A stretch of 64,000 nucleotides of DNA from a virus. Lineage: Duplodnaviria > Heunggongvirae > Uroviricota > Caudoviricetes. Below, one piece after another: positions 3,046 to 28,220 of this stretch; position 1 is the stretch's first letter, and every line of letters starts with the position of its first letter. Made by a program: the position numbers and the translations under genes. Location: the IMG/VR virus record IMGVR_UViG_2695420423_000004; one strand, 5' to 3'. A model generated the notes under the pieces. It was not told the DNA's origin. It worked only from the letters and a program-made list of their open reading frames with translations, and did no database searches.

Positions 3046-3224
3046 GTATTTTTAAGTCGCGAATGCTATCTTTTCGCATCATATTGACCTTTTAATCGTT
3101 CAGGCTTATAGTTCCGCCGTCGTAGCAAATTCTGCGACCGGGTTTAGCAGCCTGAATGTTAGTGCGGACAACCGCAGATATCCGATATTGCGGTATTTTT
3201 GTGTCCGTAAAACCGCGTTACGCC

Positions 3225-3310
3225 CAAATTATGGTGGGGCGTGATGGGGAGGCTTCGGCCTGCTGGTTTCACTAACGCCAGTCTGCTAACCCCGTCACGT
3301 CCTGCCACCT
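3225..3310 (+). ncRNA. c4: c4-like antisense repressor RNA region (boundaries approximate)
   Basis: Sequence ctgctaacccc (about 3285-3295) is complementary to two GGTTTAGCAGC-type copies upstream (about 3141) and downstream (about 3311), the a1/a'/a2 layout expected for P1 c4; lies between Op51 and icd. Confidence 0.3.
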
Positions 3311-3359
3311 GTTTAGCAGCGGGTAGCAGGTTGTTAAACCTGTTAGTGAGGCCGTAACT

Positions 3360-6502: not shown

Positions 6503-6769
6503 ATGCAATCTGATTTTTTACAGTTAGCGATCGCTTTTGCAGGATATGTTTGTATTGGCTTCTGTGTATACATGATCAGCCGAAAAATGCTTGTCGATAT
6601 CGACCGCAAAGAACGAGCAGAGGAGATCTTAGTATGGATTTTCTTTGGCGCGGTCTGGCCATTAGGGATCATGTTTGCTGCAACATTTCTTCGATGTGGA
6701 TATTCACCCTTCCAGGTGATTTCTATAGAAAAAAAGCCAGACATTGATACAATCGTTGCGGGTGCTTGA
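6503..6769 (+). CDS. small membrane protein (hypothetical)
   Basis: Track ORF 6422..6769; internal ATG at 6503 has a GGAG upstream; two hydrophobic segments. Confidence 0.3.
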   Translation: MQSDFLQLAIAFAGYVCIGFCVYMISRKMLVDIDRKERAEEILVWIFFGAVWPLGIMFAATFLRCGYSPFQVISIEKKPDIDTIVAGA

Positions 6770-6870
6770 GGCTATCTGCTTCAGGCATGACCCGAAAAGC
6801 AGATAGAAGAAAGCCCCAGATAACATTACGCGTCCTGCAAGACGCTTAACATTAATCTGAGGCCATATCT

Positions 6871-7077
6871 ATGCTTAGCATACGTAGATTAGCCTCTTAC
6901 CGACCAAAAGGTCAAGGAGAAGCAGGCTATGAAGCAGCAAAAAGCGATGTTAATCGCTCTGATCGTCATCTGTTTAACCGTCATTGTGACGGCACTGGTA
7001 ACGAGGAAAGACCTCTGCGAGGTACGAATCCGAACCGGCCAGACGGAGGTCACTGTCTTCACAGCCTACGAATCTGA
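6871..7077 (+). CDS. mok-like overlapping reading frame of the hok locus
   Basis: 68-aa ORF overlapping the hok frame in a different phase, as mok does in hok/sok loci. Confidence 0.35.
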   Translation: MLSIRRLASYRPKGQGEAGYEAAKSDVNRSDRHLFNRHCDGTGNEERPLRGTNPNRPDGGHCLHSLRI

Positions 7078-20627: not shown

Positions 20628-21525
20628 GCACTGGAAAAACATTACTATTTATAAACTTTCTCGTGAGGCGGATCTGACCGACTTAGAAGATAAAAAGAAA
20701 ATGATCCTTTTCACGCCATGCGGTAGTCAGGATATGGCCAAGTTCGGTTTTGTATCTCCATTTGGTGATAATTCCGAAGTTATCGCTATGCATGGAAATG
20801 GTTTTATCCTTGTTGAAGCAAAGCGCGAAACAAAAATTCTTCCCCCGCCGGTTATCCAGCGAGCTATTCAAGAAAAAATTGAAAAACTTGAGCAAGAACA
20901 AGCGCGTAAACTGAAGAAAACAGAGAAGGACTCCCTGAAAGACGAAGTTCTGCATTCTCTTCTGCCACGGGCTTTTTCAAAGTTTTCTGTTATCCAGGCG
21001 ATCTACGACGGTTCAACTAAACGTATCTATATCAATGCCAGCTCGCGGCAGGCAGAGGATATGCTCGCGCTTATGCGTAAATCTCTGGGTTCTCTTCCTG
21101 TTGTTCCCCTAAGTGTTGAAAATCCCATTGAATTAACGCTGACCGACTGGGTACGTGATGGTAGTGCTCCACAGGGATTTCAAATGGGGGATGCGGCAGA
21201 ACTTAAGGCAGTGCTTGAGGATGGCGGTATTGCCCGAGTGAAAAAGCAGGATTTGGGAAGCGATGAAATTTCCACACACCTGGAAGCTGGCAAGCTCGTT
21301 ACTAAGTTGGCACTCGACTGGCAGAACCGCATTAAATTTACACTGGACCATAACTTCAGCCTTACCAGCGTCAAATTTGCGGATGAATTGCTTGAGCAGA
21401 ACTCTGATATTGATAGTGAAGATGTTGCGCAGCGACTGGACGCAGATTTCTTCCTGTTGACCAGTGAAATTTCGTGCCTGGTTGATGCTCTGGTAAATGC
21501 CCTTGGTGGAGAGGCTAAGCAGTGA
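20620..21525 (+). CDS. hrdC: RdgC-like recombination-associated protein (HrdC)
   Basis: From ATG 20620: [16 protein letters not shown]...[14 protein letters not shown]..., clear similarity to the E. coli RdgC N-terminus; 301 aa. Confidence 0.8.
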
Positions 21526-23786
21526 AAGAGCTGTGCTATGGATCTGTTTGCAGTGGAATTGAAGCCGCGAGTATTGCCTGGGAACCGTTGGGTATGCGTC
21601 CGGCGTGGTTTGCTGAAATCGAGCCTTTTCCATCTGCCGTTCTTGCGCACCGCTGGCCCCATGTCGCCAACCTTGGCGACATGACAAAACTTGCCAAAAA
21701 AGTCCTGGCTGGGGAAATCGAATCCCCTGATGTGCTCGTCGGGGGTACGCCTTGTCAGGCATTCAGTATCGCGGGCTTACGTGGTGGGCTTGATGATGAA
21801 CGCGGCGCGCTAACTTTGAAGTATGTGGAGCTTGCAAATGCAATTGACGACAAACGGTCTGAGTCCTTCCTCAAACCGACAGTTATCGTCTGGGAAAATG
21901 TCCCAGGAGTCCTGTCATCGGCAGATAACGCCTTCGGATGTTTCCTTGCCGGATTGGCTGGAGAAGATGCGCCATTTGAACCAGGTGATCGACCTGAATC
22001 AGGAAAAAGTAACGCGTTCTGGCGGTGGGATGGCAAAACCGGTTGCCATGCTCCAAAGTGGCCGCAGTGTGGTTGTATTTATGGACCGCAGCGAAAGGTG
22101 GCCTGGAGAATCCTTGATGCCCAATACTTCGGAGTGGCACAACGACGCCGACGCGTGTTTGTTGTCGCAAGTGCTCGAACAGACTTCGATCCCGCAACGG
22201 TACTTTTTGAGTTCGAAGGCGTGCGCCGGAATATTGCGCCGAGCCGAAAAAAGAAGGAAATCGCTTCCGCCATTACTGCAAATGGCGCTGCAATCAGTGG
22301 CGAAAGCCTAAATCCATGCCTACACGCTGGCATGTCCCCCGGTATGAAATCGACGAAATCCGTAAACGGTTTCAGGATGGCGGCATTTGGGGAATATATT
22401 GACGATGAAACCGCATCGACAGTAAAGGCAAGAGACTTTAAAGATGCCACTGACCTTGCCGTTTTTAGCAGCACTGGAGCAGGTTTTTGGTCAGAAGGGC
22501 ATGGTACATTGCGGGCGCGTGAGCAAGAAAGCCATGAGCATCTTGTTACATTGGCTTTTCCTGAGCGTATGAGTGGTACACAACATGCAGCAACTAAGAA
22601 TACTTCACCATCTCTAATGGCTCAAAATCCAACTGCTGTTTGCTATGAAGTAAGAAACGAAGAAGTAGCTGTCCGCCGTCTTACCCCTGTCGAATGTGAG
22701 AGACTTCAAGGTTTTCCTGATGGGCATACATTGATCCCTACGGAAAAGCGTAAAAAAGTTAATTCAGATGAACTGGCATATCTGCACAATCACTATCCAG
22801 ATTTAAGCGAAGAAGAGGCCGCAATGCTTGCAGCTGACGGACCGCGTTACAAAGCGATCGGCAATAGTATGGCGATACCAGTAATGCGCTGGATTGGCGA
22901 TCGGATTGCCAAGGCTGCATGTCGGCAGAAGGAAGGGAGTGAAACAAAAGAGCGAAAAGTTAAACCAGCGGCAGAATTCGAACGGTCCATATTCAAATGG
23001 GCTGGTGGAAAATTTGGTGTTCTGGAACAAATCTTTCGCTATTTGCCAGAAGGGAAGCGCCTGATTGAACCTTTCGTTGGTGGCGGAGCTGTCTTCATGA
23101 ATGCCGGATACCAGGAAAATCTGCTAAATGATGTGAATGCTGACCTGATTAACTTTTACAAGACTCTGCAACGCGAGGCGCATTCACTTATCACTCTGGC
23201 ACATCGTTTCTTCCAGGACTACAACACGCAGGAAGGATACCTGGCAGTACGGAATGCGTTTAACAAACAAGTCTATGATGATTTACATCGCGCAGCGGCG
23301 TTTTTGTTCCTGAACCGACATTGTTTTAACGGATTGACGCGTTACAACCAAGCCGGTGAGTTCAATGTCGGTTATGGGAAGTATAAAACTCCGTATTTCC
23401 CATTGCAGGAGATGGAAGCCTTCCTTGGTGCGGAAGGGCGTTCTGAGTTTGTATGTGGTGATTTTGCTGCGGTGATTGAAGCTGCCGGAGAAGGAGATGT
23501 CATCTTTTGCGATCCGCCGTATGAACCGCTCCCAAATACAGAGGGATTCACGAACTATTCCGGTCATGACTTTAAGTTTGAAGAGCAAAAACGCCTGGCG
23601 TCTCTGTTGACGGATGCTCATCGCCGAGGTGCAAAGGTTCTCATTACTAACAGTGGCGCGCCAAACATCAGAGAACTTTATCAGGACAGTGGCTTCAGAG
23701 TGGAACCTCTTTTTGCCAGACGTTCTGTGTCTTGTAAGGGGGACACTCGAGGTGTTGCTCATGACGTTATAGCAATATTGCTCTAA
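21522..23786 (+). CDS. dmt: bifunctional DNA methyltransferase Dmt (C5-cytosine domain plus Dam-like N6-adenine domain)
   Basis: 754 aa, the size of P1 Dmt; N-terminal cytosine-MTase-like region, C-terminal DPPY motif (IFCDPPYEP). Confidence 0.85.
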
Positions 23787-23793
23787 TAAATTT
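23777..23793 (+). promoter_or_regulatory. C1 operator (perfect consensus) overlapping the dmt stop; part of a palindrome
   Basis: attgctctaataaattt, 17 of 17; embedded in the 16-bp palindrome ctaataaatttattag. Confidence 0.65.
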
Positions 23794-23970
23794 ATTAGTG
23801 TAATATCGCCTCAATGAATCGTGATTTATAGAGCGATTTAGCTGTTAGCCGCGACAGGCGCGGCGGCAAGTATGGCGGGGTAGTGACTCCTTCCCCCTCA
23901 TGACGCCGAGTTGCCAGGTTGACCATACGCCTAAGTGGCAACACCGAAGTGCGTTACGAGCTTCCAGTTT

Positions 23971-23996
23971 GCCCATCTTCGGGTGGGCGTTTTTTT
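23971..23996 (+). terminator. intrinsic terminator after dmt
   Basis: gcccatc-ttcg-ggtgggc hairpin followed by T7. Confidence 0.6.
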
Positions 23997-24461
23997 CAGG
24001 GTTTTCGTCATGGTTAGCGACTTTGCGGCGGTTTAGAAACTGACCATTAAAGTAAATGCAAACGATGATCTGATGATGGTAGCGGCCTAAGAAGCCAGAC
24101 GCCACGGGGTATGAGTCGTCCCCCGTCAAAAAATCGACCGCAGAGTGTCCCCGTCTGTGTATTAGGGAACGGGGAGGCACAACAGGTAAGGGCGCTGGTG
24201 TGATTAACCAGATGAACGAGAAGGGGCCATCTGTTGGTCAGCGTCCTTTCCTGTTGCGTCTTCTTTTCAGCGTAACAGCGGTGCTTAACAGCACTTTGGG
24301 TACAGTTCCACGAATTTACGGGTATATCCCGTCATGCTGAAAGCGCTAATCACGCTGGAAGCCAGGGTTATGCATCCCCTGTTACCGAATTGCAGCCAGG
24401 GCGCGGTGCGCCGAAAAGCATACGGAGGTGGAAGCCCTCGCCGGAGACGTACCCGGCAAGT

Positions 24462-24536
24462 GATGGTGTAGCTCAGCGGTAGAGCAGTTGGCTGTTAACC
24501 AACTGGTCGGTGGTTCGAATCCACCCACCATCGCCA
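24462..24536 (+). tRNA. trnA: tRNA-Asn (anticodon GTT)
   Basis: Hand-folded cloverleaf: acceptor gatggtg/caccatc, anticodon loop ctGTTaa, T-loop ttcgaat, encoded CCA. Confidence 0.8.
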
Positions 24537-24541
24537 CTTTA

Positions 24542-24628
24542 GGGGAGTTAGTCCGTAGGGGTAGCGGGGTAGACTGTAAATCTACTGTCATTGCGACTCG
24601 GGTGGTTCGACTCCATCACTCCCCACCA
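24542..24628 (+). tRNA. tRNA-like gene with long variable arm, anticodon GTA (Tyr-like)
   Basis: Acceptor ggggagt/actcccc, anticodon stem-loop gtaga-ctGTAaa-tctac nearly identical to E. coli tRNA-Tyr, T-loop ttcgact, CCA; the D-arm is atypical. Confidence 0.5.
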
Positions 24629-24632
24629 AATT

Positions 24633-24708
24633 GCCGATTTAGCTCAGTTGGTAGAGCAGTCGCTTTGTAAGCGAATGGTCAGCGGTTCGATCCCGTTAAT
24701 CGGCACCA
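24633..24708 (+). tRNA. trnT: tRNA-Thr (anticodon TGT)
   Basis: Acceptor gccgatt/aatcggc, anticodon loop ttTGTaa, T-loop ttcgatc, CCA. Confidence 0.8.
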
Positions 24709-25290
24709 ACATAACAGGTAAGAGCATTCTCCCTTATGGGGCCTGGCTTAAATGCATCGAGTGCTCTTACCGTTGTGATGAAGTGCAGCTCTTTGAAGCA
24801 ACCAGAAGATAAGCATCTGGCTTCACAACATAAACCGCAGGAACGACCAATAAACGGTAGTCCGTATGGAGAACACCCCGTTGAGGAAGAGGCCTGGCCG
24901 GAACCGTAACCGGCACTACAACGTTGAGAACACTGGCGTAACGGGGTCATATCCCAATCTACGAATAAATGTTGCGTTGCAGCGTGACAACCAGTGTTCT
25001 CAACATTGTGGTGAATGCACAGGCTGATGTGCCGCAACTACAGTAGTGCGCGCTTTGCGGGGCTTGCTACAACCCTGTGTCGGAGTTCAGCACCGACCAT
25101 CACAGTTTGATTCTCTGGCATGAGCATAACGCTGAAATAAGTCCAGCCTGGTGCGGCCCGATCACCCGCCGTTAGCTCCACGAAACGGAGCACGTAACAG
25201 GTAAGAGCATTCTCCTGTAACGGGTTCATATCCCAATCTACAGGTCCACCAAGAATGCTCTTTCCGTTGCGGTGAATGCGGCTAAGCGCA
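24709..25290 (+). repeat. non-coding region with duplicated hairpin-forming modules
   Basis: Exact 20-mer aacaggtaagagcattctcc at 24713 and 25196 (partial third copy at 24181); 24-mer taacgggg(t)tcatatcccaatctac at 24939 and 25218; several inverted repeats. Confidence 0.4.
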
Positions 25291-25421
25291 CGCGGGGAAA
25301 TGGTTATATCAGTCCATTCATTTCTCCTTGTTTCCCCGTCCACGGTGGATAACCAGCCAAAGGACACCGGGAGGCACCCGGCACCGCAGCTTTTTTATTC
25401 GTTAAATAATGGAGTGAGAGG

Positions 25422-25658
25422 ATGCAGAACAATCCGAACAAATGTCGAACGCTATGGGTGCGGTTATATATTTATGCCGTCCTCTGTTTGATTGTGTCAC
25501 TGGTTCTGTATGTTTGGCTTTTGCCAAATATGATCTCATCTAACAGCACAATACTTGTATTGTTGGGAGTCCTTCTCGCGCTCATTTACCCGGCTTTCGC
25601 AGTAGTCTTTTTTCGTGAAAAAACCAGGAAATTAATTAATGAAAAAAACGTTGATTAG
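25422..25658 (+). CDS. small membrane protein upstream of plp (upl-like by position)
   Basis: 78 aa with two hydrophobic segments. Confidence 0.45.
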   Translation: MQNNPNKCRTLWVRLYIYAVLCLIVSLVLYVWLLPNMISSNSTILVLLGVLLALIYPAFAVVFFREKTRKLINEKNVD

Positions 25659-26466
25659 TGCAGCGATTATTTTGGGTTCTTTATGTCTGACCGGATGCGA
25701 TCGGGTAGAGCCAGGTAACGTAGGGATCAAAGTAAATAAGCTGGGGGATGATAAAGGTATCGGTGAAGTAGTTGGTGTTGGTCGCTACTGGACAGGCTTG
25801 AATACTGAAGTTTATATCTTCCCGACCTTTAAGCAAATGAAGACATACGATGAGCCGTTCAGCTTCCAGATGAGCGACGGAACAACCATTGGTTACCACA
25901 TCGGCGTAGCCTACAAGGTTGATCCAGCAAAAGTCACAACGGTATTTCAGACCTATCGCAAAGGTGTAGATGATATTACTGATACCGATCTACGCCAGAA
26001 GGTTGCAGATGCTCTGAACCGGTTAGCCAGCAAAATGACCACCGACAAATTTATCGACGGTGGCAAATCTGAATTGCTTGATGCAGCCCTTAAAGACATT
26101 CAGGAAGAAATGACGCCAATCGGCATTCAGGTGATGAGCCTCTCTTATGTAGGTAAGCCAGAATACCCGCCAACAGTTATTGACAGTATTAACGCCAAAG
26201 TCACGGCAAACCAAAAAACCCTGCAACGCGAGCAAGAGGTCAAACAACGTGAAGCAGAGGCCAACATGCTGCGCGCGGAAGCTGCCGGACAGGCTGATGC
26301 TATTCGCACAAAAGCCCAGGCCGAAGCTGATGCCATTCGTTTACGTGGTGAAGCTCTGCGCCAGAACCCCGGTGTTATGGAGTTGGAAGCGATCAACAAA
26401 TGGAACGGTACATTACCGCAGTATATGACCAGTAATACCGCTGTTCCGTTTGTTCCGGTGAAATAA
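25639..26466 (+). CDS. plp: lipoprotein with SPFH/band-7-like domain (Plp-like)
   Basis: 275 aa; lipobox LCLTGC; coiled-coil Ala/Glu-rich C-terminal region. Confidence 0.65.
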   Translation: MKKTLISAAIILGSLCLTGCDRVEPGNVGIKVNKLGDDKGIGEVVGVGRYWTGLNTEVYIFPTFKQMKTYDEPFSFQMSDGTTIGYHIGVAYKVDPAKVTTVFQTYRKGVDDITDTDLRQKVADALNRLASKMTTDKFIDGGKSELLDAALKDIQEEMTPIGIQVMSLSYVGKPEYPPTVIDSINAKVTANQKTLQREQEVKQREAEANMLRAEAAGQADAIRTKAQAEADAIRLRGEALRQNPGVMELEAINKWNGTLPQYMTSNTAVPFVPVK

Positions 26467-26493
26467 AAGCGTAAGCAAAATTGGCAGTAATCC

Positions 26494-26569
26494 GGCCCTT
26501 TAGCTCAGTGGTTAGAGCTGGCGACTCATAATCGCACGGTCACCGGTTCAAGTCCGGTAGGGGCCACCA
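26494..26569 (+). tRNA. trnI: tRNA-Ile2 (anticodon CAT, lysidine type)
   Basis: Near-identical to E. coli ileX over the whole length; anticodon loop ctCATaa, CCA. Confidence 0.8.
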
Positions 26570-26849
26570 TATTTGGTTGTAACACGGCGTCTGGCACATG
26601 CGTCGTTAGCGGTCTGGTGACGTTAAAAGGGGGGAACCTTGCCCCTAGCTCAGGCAACGAACCAGGTAGCCGGAATGTGCAAGCCACCGTTTGTTGTTTC
26701 TCGGGTAAAGGGATTCACCATCCTGGCGATTCGGTGTGACAGCCGGGAAGAGTCCGGCGCATTAATCCTAATTTTCTGGTGATGACTCATATCGTTAGGA
26801 GTGATTTGAGTATGCCGATTATATCTGACATTCAGCACGCCTGGGTGGA

Positions 26850-28220
26850 GTGCTAATGTCTGCATCCCCTCTTGAATCCATGCCAAATTCCCTTAGTGCA
26901 GAACAAGCTGTACTTGGTGGCTTAATGCTTGATAACTGCCGCTGGGATGAAGTTGCAGATCGTATAGTTGCTGATGATTTTTATACCAGTGCTCATCGTG
27001 AAATTTTCAGTGAGATGGAGAGGTTATTAAGTCATGGCAAACCGATTGATTTGATAACACTTGCTGAAGCACTTGAACAGAACGGTAAATTAGAACGCGC
27101 CGGTGGTTTTGCGTACCTTGCGGAGATGTCAAAGAACACGCCCAGCGCGGCAAATATTTGTGCTTATGCGGATATCGTTCGTGAACGCGCGGTTGTTCGT
27201 GAAATGATTTCCGTCGCAAATGAAATAGCCGAAGCTGGATATGCGCAGGATGGCAGGGGCAGCAATGAATTGCTGGATATGGCCGAGCGCCGCGTTTTTG
27301 AAATAGCTGAAAAACGACAAAAGAGCGGTAGTGGTCCAAAAGATATCGCCAGCATTCTCGATGCAACGGTATCTCGCATAGAAGAGTTGTTTCAGCGACC
27401 ACATGATGGTGTAACGGGGCTTGATACGGGATTTACCGATCTCAATAAGAAGACGGCAGGGCTTCAGCCGTCCGAACTCATCATTGTCGCCGCCCGCCCA
27501 TCTATGGGGAAGACCACGTTTGCGATGAATCTCGTCGAAAATGCCGCAGTTCGTAACGATAAGCCCGTATTGGTTTTTAGCCTTGAGATGCCGAGCCACC
27601 AGCTGATGATGCGCTCACTGGCTTCTCTTGCACGCGTTGATCAGACTCGTATTCGGACAGGGCAACTTAACGACGAGGATTGGGCGCGGGTTTCTGGCGC
27701 AATGGGTATTCTGTTGGACAAGCAGAATATTTTTATTGATGACTCAAGCGCCCTGACGCCGACAGAGCTACGTTCCCGCGCTCGTCGTGTTTATAAAGAA
27801 AATGGTGGTTTGAGCATGATTATGATCGACTACCTGCAACTTATGCGCGTCCCCGAGCTGCAAGATAACCGAACGCTGGAAATTGCCGAGATTTCTCGCT
27901 CACTGAAGGCGTTGGCGAAGGAATTACAAGTACCGGTGGTGGCATTGTCACAACTTAATCGATCGCTTGAACAGCGTGCGGACAAACGACCGGTAAATTC
28001 AGATTTACGTGAATCAGGAGCAATTGAGCAGGACGCAGACCTGATTATGTTTCTGTATCGCGACGAAGTTTATCACCCGGATAGCGAAATGAAGGGCATT
28101 GCCGAGGTAATTATCGGAAAGCAACGAAATGGCCCAATTGGCACGGTGAGATTGGCTTTTAACGGCCAATACTCACGGTTTGATAACTATGCCGGTGCTG
28201 ACTGGCAAGAGGATTATTAA
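26850..28220 (+). CDS. ban: Ban, DnaB-family replicative helicase
   Basis: 456 aa, collinear with E. coli DnaB; Walker A ARPSMGKTTF. Confidence 0.9.
   Translation: MLMSASPLESMPNSLSAEQAVLGGLMLDNCRWDEVADRIVADDFYTSAHREIFSEMERLLSHGKPIDLITLAEALEQNGKLERAGGFAYLAEMSKNTPSAANICAYADIVRERAVVREMISVANEIAEAGYAQDGRGSNELLDMAERRVFEIAEKRQKSGSGPKDIASILDATVSRIEELFQRPHDGVTGLDTGFTDLNKKTAGLQPSELIIVAARPSMGKTTFAMNLVENAAVRNDKPVLVFSLEMPSHQLMMRSLASLARVDQTRIRTGQLNDEDWARVSGAMGILLDKQNIFIDDSSALTPTELRSRARRVYKENGGLSMIMIDYLQLMRVPELQDNRTLEIAEISRSLKALAKELQVPVVALSQLNRSLEQRADKRPVNSDLRESGAIEQDADLIMFLYRDEVYHPDSEMKGIAEVIIGKQRNGPIGTVRLAFNGQYSRFDNYAGADWQEDY

Follow-up and report, generated by a model that had tools for sequence, protein, structure and literature searches.

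A repeated RNA hairpin module beside the tRNA genes of a P1-like phage belongs to a widespread, apparently undescribed family

Main finding

The repeat-rich stretch between the tRNA genes and the next gene of a P1-like phage genome does not code for protein; the repeats in it form structured RNA elements, read on the + (ban-operon) strand. Four lines of evidence support this: compensatory changes in the hairpin arms, an excess of G·U over A·C pairs, higher covariance model scores on the + strand, and tRNA genes that lie on the same strand as the elements. The repeats are copies of a single hairpin module, with three copies (A, B, and C) downstream of the tRNA genes and a fourth (U) upstream of them. 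They are not a local duplication; the same family occurs across many unrelated phages, including lambda, which a preliminary description of this DNA overlooked. The module family is widespread and apparently constitutes an undescribed RNA structure.

Locus and module architecture

The window, by which we mean the whole 64,000-nucleotide (64 kb) stretch that was analysed, is a P1-like phage or plasmid. It carries dmt at 21522-23786, genes for tRNA-Asn, tRNA-Tyr, and tRNA-Thr at 24462-24708, a tRNA gene with a CAT anticodon at 26494, and ban at 26850. The repeat stretch falls between tRNA-Thr and the next + strand gene, within the C1-controlled leader of the ban operon. Against P1, RCS47, P7, and hundreds of IncY-type plasmids, it shows 94-99% identity, and positions 23800-25450 correspond to about 68.7-70.2 kb in P1 coordinates. 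According to the P1 and P7 records, the ban operon has a C1-controlled promoter/operator at the dmt end, upstream of the stretch, and everything from the dmt end to ban is read on the + strand. The features of the region, all on the + strand, are as follows.

23998-24175, + strand: ssrA-like element with resume context AUUAAAGUAAAU and a 10-codon tag (GCA to GCC, then UAA) at 24058-24090
24178-24258, + strand: module U, upstream of the tRNA genes (the "partial third copy" of the preliminary description), with base CACAAC/GUUGCG and stem GGUAAGGGCGCUGG/UCAGCGUCCUUUCC
24462-24708, + strand: tRNA-Asn(GUU), tRNA-Tyr(GUA), and tRNA-Thr(UGU), from ARAGORN and Rfam
24710-24777, + strand: module A hairpin, with base CAUAAC/GUUGUG, bulged A at 24716, stem GGUAAGAGCAUUC/GAGUGCUCUUACC, and 29-nt apex
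24778-24830, + strand: module A tail, comprising AUGAAGUGC, the hairpin GAAGCAACCAGAAGAUAAGCAUCUGGCUUC (24795-24824), and CACAAC
24832-24913, + strand: conserved 5' leader of module B, with small hairpins including GCCGGAACCGUAACCGGC
24914-25013, + strand: module B hairpin, from CACUACAAC-GUUGAGAACACUGG to CCAGUGUUCUCAAC-AUUGUGGUG, with 23-nt arms that are 91% complementary
25011-25032, + strand: module B tail ("type 1"), comprising GUGAAUGC and the small hairpin GCACA-GGCUGA-UGUGC
25117-25192, + strand: conserved 5' leader of module C, with a GAUCAC-loop hairpin (about 25153-25169) and the hairpin CUCCACGAAACGGAG (25176-25190)
25193-25271, + strand: module C hairpin, with base CGUAAC/GUUGCG, bulged A at 25199, U·U at 25202/25263, and stem GGUAAGAGCAUUCU/AGAAUGCUCUUUCC
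25268-25396, + strand: STnc100-like closed domain, with helix UGCGGUG/CACCGCA, conserved CACCGGGAGGCACCCGGCACC, and a U-tract at 25391-25396

Each module is built on a 6 bp base helix (CAYAAC/GUUGYG). Above it, in many copies after an A bulge, come 2 bp, a single position occupied by U·U or U-A, and a further 10-13 bp, and the whole helix is irregular and about 20-22 bp long. The apex is highly variable (5-123 nt) and freely replaceable. On the 3' side, the conserved tail GUGAAUGC (AUGAAGUGC in module A) is followed by a small hairpin, the stem of which covaries across the family (GCGCA/UGCGC, GCACA/UGUGC, GCGUA/UACGU, and GCGAA/UUCGC). Module A begins 2 nt past the 3' end of tRNA-Thr (24708).

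A scan of the 64 kb with the covariance model R1 returned the four module sites and no others. Module A scored 42.4 bits on the + strand versus 14.3 on the - strand, and module C scored 41.0 versus 13.7. Module B was matched over its tail and hairpin at 25.6 bits (E = 0.0017), and module U, which is without the GUGAAUGC tail, scored 18.1 bits on the + strand and 16.3 on the - strand. Separately, the extended structure contains a candidate alternative pairing of GUUGUGGUG with a downstream CAYCAC.

The repeats reported in the preliminary description are real and can be assigned to parts of the module. The exact 20-mer AACAGGTAAGAGCATTCTCC, found at 24713 and 25196 and nowhere else in the 64 kb, is the 5' arm common to modules A and C; it is not expected by chance, as no such repeat arose in 100 shuffles even with three mismatches allowed. 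The 24-mer TAACGGGGTCATATCCCAATCTAC at 24939, repeated with one mismatch at 25218 and likewise not expected by chance, is an apical motif common to modules B and C (24939-24962 and 25218-25241, respectively) and is present in 9 of 75 distinct family members. In module B, the apex also contains a second small hairpin. The partial third copy was borne out by an 88% match between 24178-24193 and 24710-24725. Strong inverted repeats were found at 24914-24936/24991-25013 (23 nt, 91%), 24717-24729/24759-24771, and 25200-25213/25252-25265, as had been described. The preliminary description had also taken the second copy for a compacted form of the first, which is partly right: module C combines the outer stem of A with the apical motif of B.

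Covariation and strand

To examine the helix, we aligned 69 distinct copies using just the two arms of each stem, linked through an artificial loop. Of the cells in the long helix, 95.1% were paired, and 11 of 19 pairs had changed on both sides. None of 500 shuffles reached any of the observed pairing measures, and pairing was just 32-54% in a control in which the partner was slid by 1-3 columns. The small tail hairpin of "type 1" copies covaried too. Folding and covariation across relatives had been put forward as a check on the preliminary description, and compensatory changes were indeed found across many phages.

Helix positions contained 113 G·U versus 18 A·C combinations, although this excess is somewhat inflated because the selection of copies admitted G·U and not A·C. 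An excess of G·U over A·C is expected of RNA read on the + strand. Relative to shuffled sequences, folding of 24706-25400 gave z = -7.3 on the + strand versus z = -3.9 on the - strand.

The module family outside the window

Sensitive BLAST searches revealed the region to be a mosaic, the pieces of which recur separately in unrelated phages, each inside an unannotated gap of 500-1000 nt. Such pieces were found in Klebsiella MK54, Sashavirus, P22-like phages, SSU5-like plasmids, Citrobacter phiNP, and Klebsiella and Cronobacter prophages. Sashavirus, P22-like phages, and SSU5-like Klebsiella plasmids carry the tail segment of module A with 83-93% identity. The leader of module B is 87% identical to a non-coding gap in Citrobacter phage phiNP, and that of module C matches the Q-S gap of Klebsiella prophages with 84% identity, preceded there by a tRNA-Gly. 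Mosaicism also extends to close relatives: a deletion in SJ46 spans exactly from one copy of the 24-mer to the other, in P7 and D6 a tRNA-Ser cassette sits between conserved arms, and the apex of module A differs between P1 and the window.

We scanned IMG/VR with the 14-mer CGTTGTGGTGAATG and obtained about 75 distinct modules, after dropping as chance the approximately 40% of matches without a module. The module is also present in Ackermannviridae and in prophages of many Enterobacterales genera. In lambda, a copy scoring 50.7 bits lies a few nucleotides past the T-run that ends 6S RNA (tR'), in the late leader between Q and S, at an estimated 44.79-44.87 kb on the lambda map. A 41-nt probe spanning the 3' arm and tail matched 1136 of 5426 complete E. 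coli genomes, with no annotated feature overlapping it among the matches listed, and about 15 Enterobacterales genera have prophages that share one identical 28-mer of the tail. R1 also detected modules absent from its training set, on the tRNA strand in each case, in Sa179lw (51.2 bits), SJ46 (46.4 bits), pTIC (32.3 bits), and the virulent Ackermannviridae phage phiEa2809 (32.0 and 26.2 bits).

The modules have a characteristic setting. They reside in ORF-free gaps with a median length of 940 nt, and roughly 70-75% of flanking ORFs are co-oriented with the module (45 of 64 upstream and 52 of 69 downstream). A tRNA gene is located within 400 nt of 23 of the 75 distinct modules and is on the same strand in all 23. 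Modules start 1-2 nt past tRNA-Thr in P1-like phages or past tRNA-Ser in P7 and pMCR-1-P3. A terminator-like T-run precedes 17 of 75 modules, and a hairpin ends at most 8 nt upstream of 52 of 75, as compared with 159 of 375 random positions (42%).

Scanning Rfam, as the preliminary description had advised, named no module family at either gathering or E ≤ 10 thresholds and returned tRNAs, a sub-threshold STnc100 match, and microRNA noise; no family in Rfam 15 covers the hairpin module. Our literature search found no other description of it, and a P1 RNA-seq preprint does not mention the region.

Possible role in processing and stability

What might these modules do? Our best guess, which we put a little below an even chance, is that they serve as cis-acting punctuation for the processing and stability of a tRNA- and sRNA-rich transcript. 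The preliminary description had likewise suggested RNA processing sites for the long c1-controlled transcript. Modules would fold during transcription, directly adjoining a small hairpin, a terminator hairpin, or the 3' end of a tRNA. Upon release of the upstream tRNA or terminated RNA, the downstream RNA would begin with a base-paired 5' end and would thereby be protected. The long duplex would be a plausible substrate for RNase III, which could thus part tRNAs, small RNAs, and the downstream mRNA from one another. An RNase III site would be expected to have a near-continuous duplex of about 20 bp or more, and the module offers 6 + 2 + 10-13 bp with one bulge and one mismatch. The 3'-most product, consisting of module C, the STnc100-like domain, and the U-tract, would probably be a stable small RNA. 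Finally, the conserved arms may double as recombination joints that swap tRNA genes and apical inserts between phages, which could explain the mosaic pattern seen in the deletion of SJ46, in the tRNA-Ser insert of P7 and D6, and in the differing apices of module A.

A generic processing hairpin leaves some of the conservation unexplained. The GGCUGA loop, the GUGAAUGC tail, the U·U position, and the base helix are all conserved in sequence, which points to a specific protein or RNA partner; the punctuation model names no such partner.

An ssrA-like tag element and a possible trans-acting RNA

The main rival reading, which we consider somewhat unlikely, is that the modules are domains of a larger non-coding RNA that acts in trans on translation or ribosome rescue or binds a host factor. 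The simplest such gene would run from a promoter through the ssrA-like tag element, a pair of small hairpins, and the long hairpin to an STnc100-like domain and a terminator. Inserted tRNA genes and duplicated modules would have stretched it in P1-like phages, and the hairpin would function as a scaffold or protein-binding arm.

This reading draws on the element directly upstream of module U, which starts 120 nt past the start of the tag. The element can be aligned to E. coli ssrA over UUUGCG, the resume codon, the tag, and post-stop sequence including UAAUAACCUG. Its tag encodes ANDDLMMVAA* and has no start codon. Homologues were found in 265 phage records of very different kinds. All 31 of 31 validated elements have 10 codons with the pattern AN[DE]...[AV]A*, in nine variants that include synonymous changes, and a hairpin module starts 101-122 nt past the tag start in 28 of the 31. 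Rfam's tmRNA_permuted matched the tag region of three phages at 28-33.5 bits. In Sa179lw and MK54, a strong promoter-like site (TTGACA-17-TAGATT) is situated just upstream of the element, and the module is on the strand opposite to the flanking structural genes, inside what appears to be an independent, promoter-driven non-coding RNA gene. This setting fits a trans-acting RNA better than it fits punctuation, and conservation of the tail and loop sequences beyond the needs of pairing points in the same direction.

On the other hand, neither ARAGORN nor Rfam recognised a tRNA-like domain in the tag element. ARAGORN found no tmRNA at default settings, and we rejected its calls at relaxed thresholds, which recovered the tag but placed the tRNA-like domains inconsistently. 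Scores for tmRNA in Rfam (24-33.5 bits) were below the gathering score of 47. Moreover, most modules, including that of lambda and modules A-C of the window, are without an adjacent tag element, and the linkage of all the pieces in one molecule is putative. In a survey of tmRNA genes from 2014, mycobacteriophages and Bacillus phage G were the only phages listed with ssrA (PMC4131195).

A bolder proposal, which we regard as speculative and improbable, is that the modules form the structural core of a phage RNA system that has so far gone unrecognised and has at its centre an ssrA-derived tag element without a tRNA-like domain. Such a unit might hijack, mimic, or block host trans-translation or another ribosome-linked process. 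If true, a unit of tag element, long hairpin, and STnc100-like domain would sit beside tRNA genes in many enterobacterial phages, its carriers including P1-like phages, Ackermannviridae, N4-like phages, several siphoviruses, and HK620, and the copies in the repeat stretch would be duplicated arms of it.

The STnc100-like domain and possible Hfq-type small RNAs

The tail of module C runs into a closed multi-stem domain (25268-25388), followed by the U-tract. Rfam family RF02076 (STnc100) matched 25268-25388 with 37.8 bits (E = 3e-6) over model positions 31-147 of 206, which is below the gathering score of 47 bits, and matched the homologue from an E. albertii P1-like plasmid with 47.3 bits, just above it. 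The window segment has the closing helix of STnc100 (UGCGGUG...CACCGCA), and its GGAGGCACCCGGCACC is exactly the consensus. The segment is best named STnc100-like. STnc100, a prophage sRNA, is a relative of PasD and occurs in Q-S regions as well as downstream of stx2. The Pas sRNAs depend on Hfq and have been detected by RIL-seq (bioRxiv 10.64898/2026.05.13.724894; PMC8550237). The earlier suggestion of structured small RNAs fits the 3' end of the region, where module C precedes the STnc100-like domain and U-tract.

One might then ask whether each module is itself an Hfq-type base-pairing sRNA, or the precursor of one, of the prophage STnc100/Pas kind, with the hypervariable apex or the G/U-rich tail as its specificity element. 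We consider this quite unlikely. The continuation of module C into the STnc100-like domain is in its favor, as is the combination of conserved stems with variable apices, and the tail CGUUGUGAUG presumably resembles the seed of GcvB. However, a U-tract follows just one of the four copies in the window, and the conserved parts of the module are paired although seeds are usually single-stranded. Canonical STnc100 loci also possess a promoter-like site of their own and lack a long upstream hairpin, so that they share nothing but the tail domain with the region studied here.

A possible role as DNA elements

We also weighed the view that the modules are DNA-level elements, either inverted-repeat recombination joints or miniature mobile elements, and that their RNA structure is incidental. 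The break-points of the mosaic coincide with the conserved arms, the SJ46 deletion lies between two repeat copies, and copies occur in many unrelated phages, all of which would agree with this view. Nevertheless, we think it very improbable given the strand asymmetry in G·U versus A·C and in + versus - strand scores, the fixed orientation to tRNA genes, and the conservation of a tail on one side only. Transposases and target-site duplications were not noted in an unsystematic look. A miniature mobile element or DNA recombination site should be orientation-independent with symmetric arms, unlike the strand-asymmetric modules with their fixed orientation to tRNA genes.

Annotated genes and other identities

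The P1 record AF234172 annotates two minus-strand genes over the repeat stretch, plp ("putative lipoprotein") and upl. The preliminary description had seen no convincing ORF here, and our analysis concurs: there are just two minus-strand ORFs, of 113 and 109 aa, at 24696-25037 and 25038-25367, with TTG/GTG starts. Although PHROG families exist for the upl-like ORF, these matches only reflect annotations of P1-like genomes, and neither ORF has a Pfam match. The ends and lengths of the ORFs shift among relatives that are 91-99% identical. The plp-like ORF varies from 96 to 143 aa, always with a TTG or GTG start, and extends antisense into tRNA-Thr, while the upl-like ORF has 63, 109, 61, or 47 aa or is missing. 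Relatives differ by indels of 161 and 254 nt, neither of which is divisible by three. A search of 23600-26900 for promoter-like sites came up empty on both strands. Neither the P7 record nor partial gene tables of RefSeq plasmids contain a CDS in this stretch. Compensatory changes in both arms of a hairpin are also unlike a product of selection on protein, and it is only the near-identity of relatives that makes the minus-strand ORFs persist. The conservation of frame, start, and length, with protein-level homologues, that genuine genes should show is absent, and we reject the encoding of Plp and Upl here as extremely unlikely. When plp and upl were knocked down by CRISPRi in P1, plaques showed no phenotype (PMC10695390), which implies that any role of the region is accessory.

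Several other identities were dismissed. The proposed remnant of a self-splicing intron did not hold up, as no intron family matched 23700-25500 in Rfam at E ≤ 10. Additional tRNA or tRNA-like genes were rejected because ARAGORN and Rfam call just Asn, Tyr, Thr, and Met(CAT); a T-loop-like hairpin occurs in 13 of 75 module apices, with no cloverleaf. Resemblance of the 24-mer to the tRNA-Tyr anticodon arm (68%) looks like chance, and ARAGORN finds no tRNA pseudogene there. YrlA (RF02553) matched weakly over genuine tRNAs only (15.2 bits in the window and 25.6 in D6, with a gathering score of 69), and the AgvB and AsxR families in Rfam had no matches in the modules. The integron attC motif, RYYYAAC/GTTRRRY, is only loosely like CAYAAC/GUUGYG and was not judged a match. 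Finally, the 3' arm contains UGCUCUUU or UGCUCUUA, which we take to resemble the boxA of rrn and nut sites. A boxA was rejected because this sequence is base-paired and is replaced in many copies, including by the commonest variant, GAGAAUCCUUAGC.

Significance

These results add a covariation-supported RNA structure that is missing from Rfam 15 and unannotated in RefSeq. They also argue for correcting the P1 reference, in which plp and upl are most likely the mirror image of a structured RNA rather than genes. The sites that modules occupy are the most heavily transcribed non-coding stretches of these phages, home to tRNA genes, Shiga-toxin genes, and prophage sRNAs, and an RNA element shared among them bears on the expression and exchange of such cargo genes. 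The fixed coupling to an ssrA-like tag further offers a testable link between phage tRNA islands and ribosome rescue.

Comparison with known systems

The tag element shares with tmRNA its resume context, a 10-codon AN[DE]...[AV]A tag, and post-stop sequence. It differs in that neither the tRNA-like domain nor pseudoknots PK1 and PK2-4 were recognised.

The nearest named family is STnc100, for the tail domain alone. STnc100 and the window segment have in common the closing helix (UGGUG/CACCA), the leading GGUGAAU, and CACCGGGAGGCACCCGGCACC, and both are phage-borne and located in non-coding stretches of highly transcribed operons. In contrast to STnc100, the window segment is without the first 30 and last 59 model positions, and the hairpin module falls outside the Rfam model.

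Stable or large structured RNAs are known to accompany phage tRNA genes, such as the T4 species 1 and 2 RNAs, ROOL, and GOLLD. Like these, the module is non-coding, structured, phage-borne, and co-located and co-oriented with tRNA genes. Unlike ROOL and GOLLD, it is a short repeated unit rather than one large fold, and Rfam at E ≤ 10 returned no ROOL, GOLLD, or other family match for it.

The module is most reminiscent of the RNase III hairpins of T7 (early and late) and of lambda (N-leader, sib, and late-leader). Both form irregular duplexes roughly two helical turns long, interrupted by an internal mismatch, and both are positioned between functional units of long phage transcripts. RNase III processing sites were reportedly mapped in Q-mediated lambda late RNA by Daniels et al. 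in 1988, and lambda's homologous copy of the module is in the late leader, the region to which those sites reportedly belong. To our knowledge, known RNase III sites differ from the module in being without its conserved single-stranded tail, second hairpin, and hypervariable apex, and they do not form one sequence family across unrelated phages. The RNase III hairpins of T7 and lambda are the closest functional analogy.

An ssrA-like element precedes the hairpin modules

Upstream of the hairpin modules, we found an ssrA-like element that joins a tmRNA-type resume context to a 10-codon tag, which in the window reads ANDDLMMVAA*. The element was located in the window and at four further comparison loci, one of which (L255) is phage Bp4:

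Window 23998-24175, ssrA-like element, with the tag at 24058-24090
L006, about 1330-1470, ssrA-like element
L254, 1195-1375, ssrA-like element
L255, 1183-1340, ssrA-like element
L256, 1183-1340, ssrA-like element

The element was alignable with E. coli ssrA, and no tRNA-like domain was recognised within it. Nine tag variants occurred among 31 instances, all 31 of which kept a length of 10 codons. In total, 265 phage records spanning many families carry the element. A hairpin module is nearly always present after it, starting 101-122 nt past the start of the tag.

In phage Bp4, odd tRNA-like genes lie on either side of the element, at 1010-1081 and 1373-1451. The one called as tRNA-Ala(CGC) received only a weak Rfam score, and the one called as tRNA-Cys(ACA) lies 12 nt past the element. 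Instead of tRNAs, these flanking genes might be pieces of one RNA together with the ssrA-like element.

Immediately 5' of the element in the window, a strong intrinsic terminator (23967-23996) closes the counterpart of the P1 record's 'dicF-like region' (about 23900-23996), in which Rfam returned no match to DicF.

Annotation and gene content differ among P1-like elements

P1-like elements differ in tRNA content at a locus corresponding to:

Window 24542-24628, variable tRNA locus
L007, 1646-1732, variable tRNA locus
L009, 1896-1982, variable tRNA locus
L010, 2307-2393, variable tRNA locus

A tRNA-Tyr(GUA) is present in the window and a few relatives and is missing from P1. P7, D6, pMCR-1-P3, and pTIC have a tRNA-Ser(UGA) whose variable arm is long. 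This tRNA-Ser is unannotated in P7, and the D6 annotation assigns it to the wrong strand. Rfam considered it tRNA-Sec-like, with a score below threshold.

Two genes of the P1 reference record (AF234172) map to the module region:

Window 24696-25037, minus strand, plp, labeled 'putative lipoprotein' in the P1 record
Window 25038-25367, minus strand, upl

Most likely, both annotations are artefacts, each a mirror image of structured RNA on the opposite strand.

Further downstream, where P1 has tciA-tciB-tciC, window 25422-26466 instead holds an SPFH/Band 7 gene and a small ORF for a membrane protein, matching the PHROG category 'membrane protein'. Elsewhere, at 3106-3312 and 6760-6934, Rfam identified C4 with its a1/b1 targets, the immunity RNAs expected of P1, along with a sok antitoxin RNA; all are ordinary features of P1-like elements.

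Module repeats, arms, and tails

Relative to window 24938-24962 and 25217-25241, Salmonella phage SJ46 (L008, 1679-1703) is missing the 254 nt between the two copies of the 24-mer. This loss is the product that would be expected from recombination between the copies.

The exact 28-mer of the conserved module tail was also found, by genome contig search, in contigs L375, L376, and L378, labeled as Martelella alba, a Geobacteraceae MAG, and an Acidobacteriota MAG; all three probably derive from enterobacterial phages and are present as contamination.

The module 3' arms, whose commonest form contains UGCUCUUU or UGCUCUUA, are exemplified by:

Window 24762-24786, module 3' arm
Window 25256-25279, module 3' arm

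UGCUCUUU and UGCUCUUA appear similar to boxA of the rrn and lambda nut sites, and the tail CGUUGUGAUG/GUUGUGGUG appears similar to the G/U-rich seed of GcvB.
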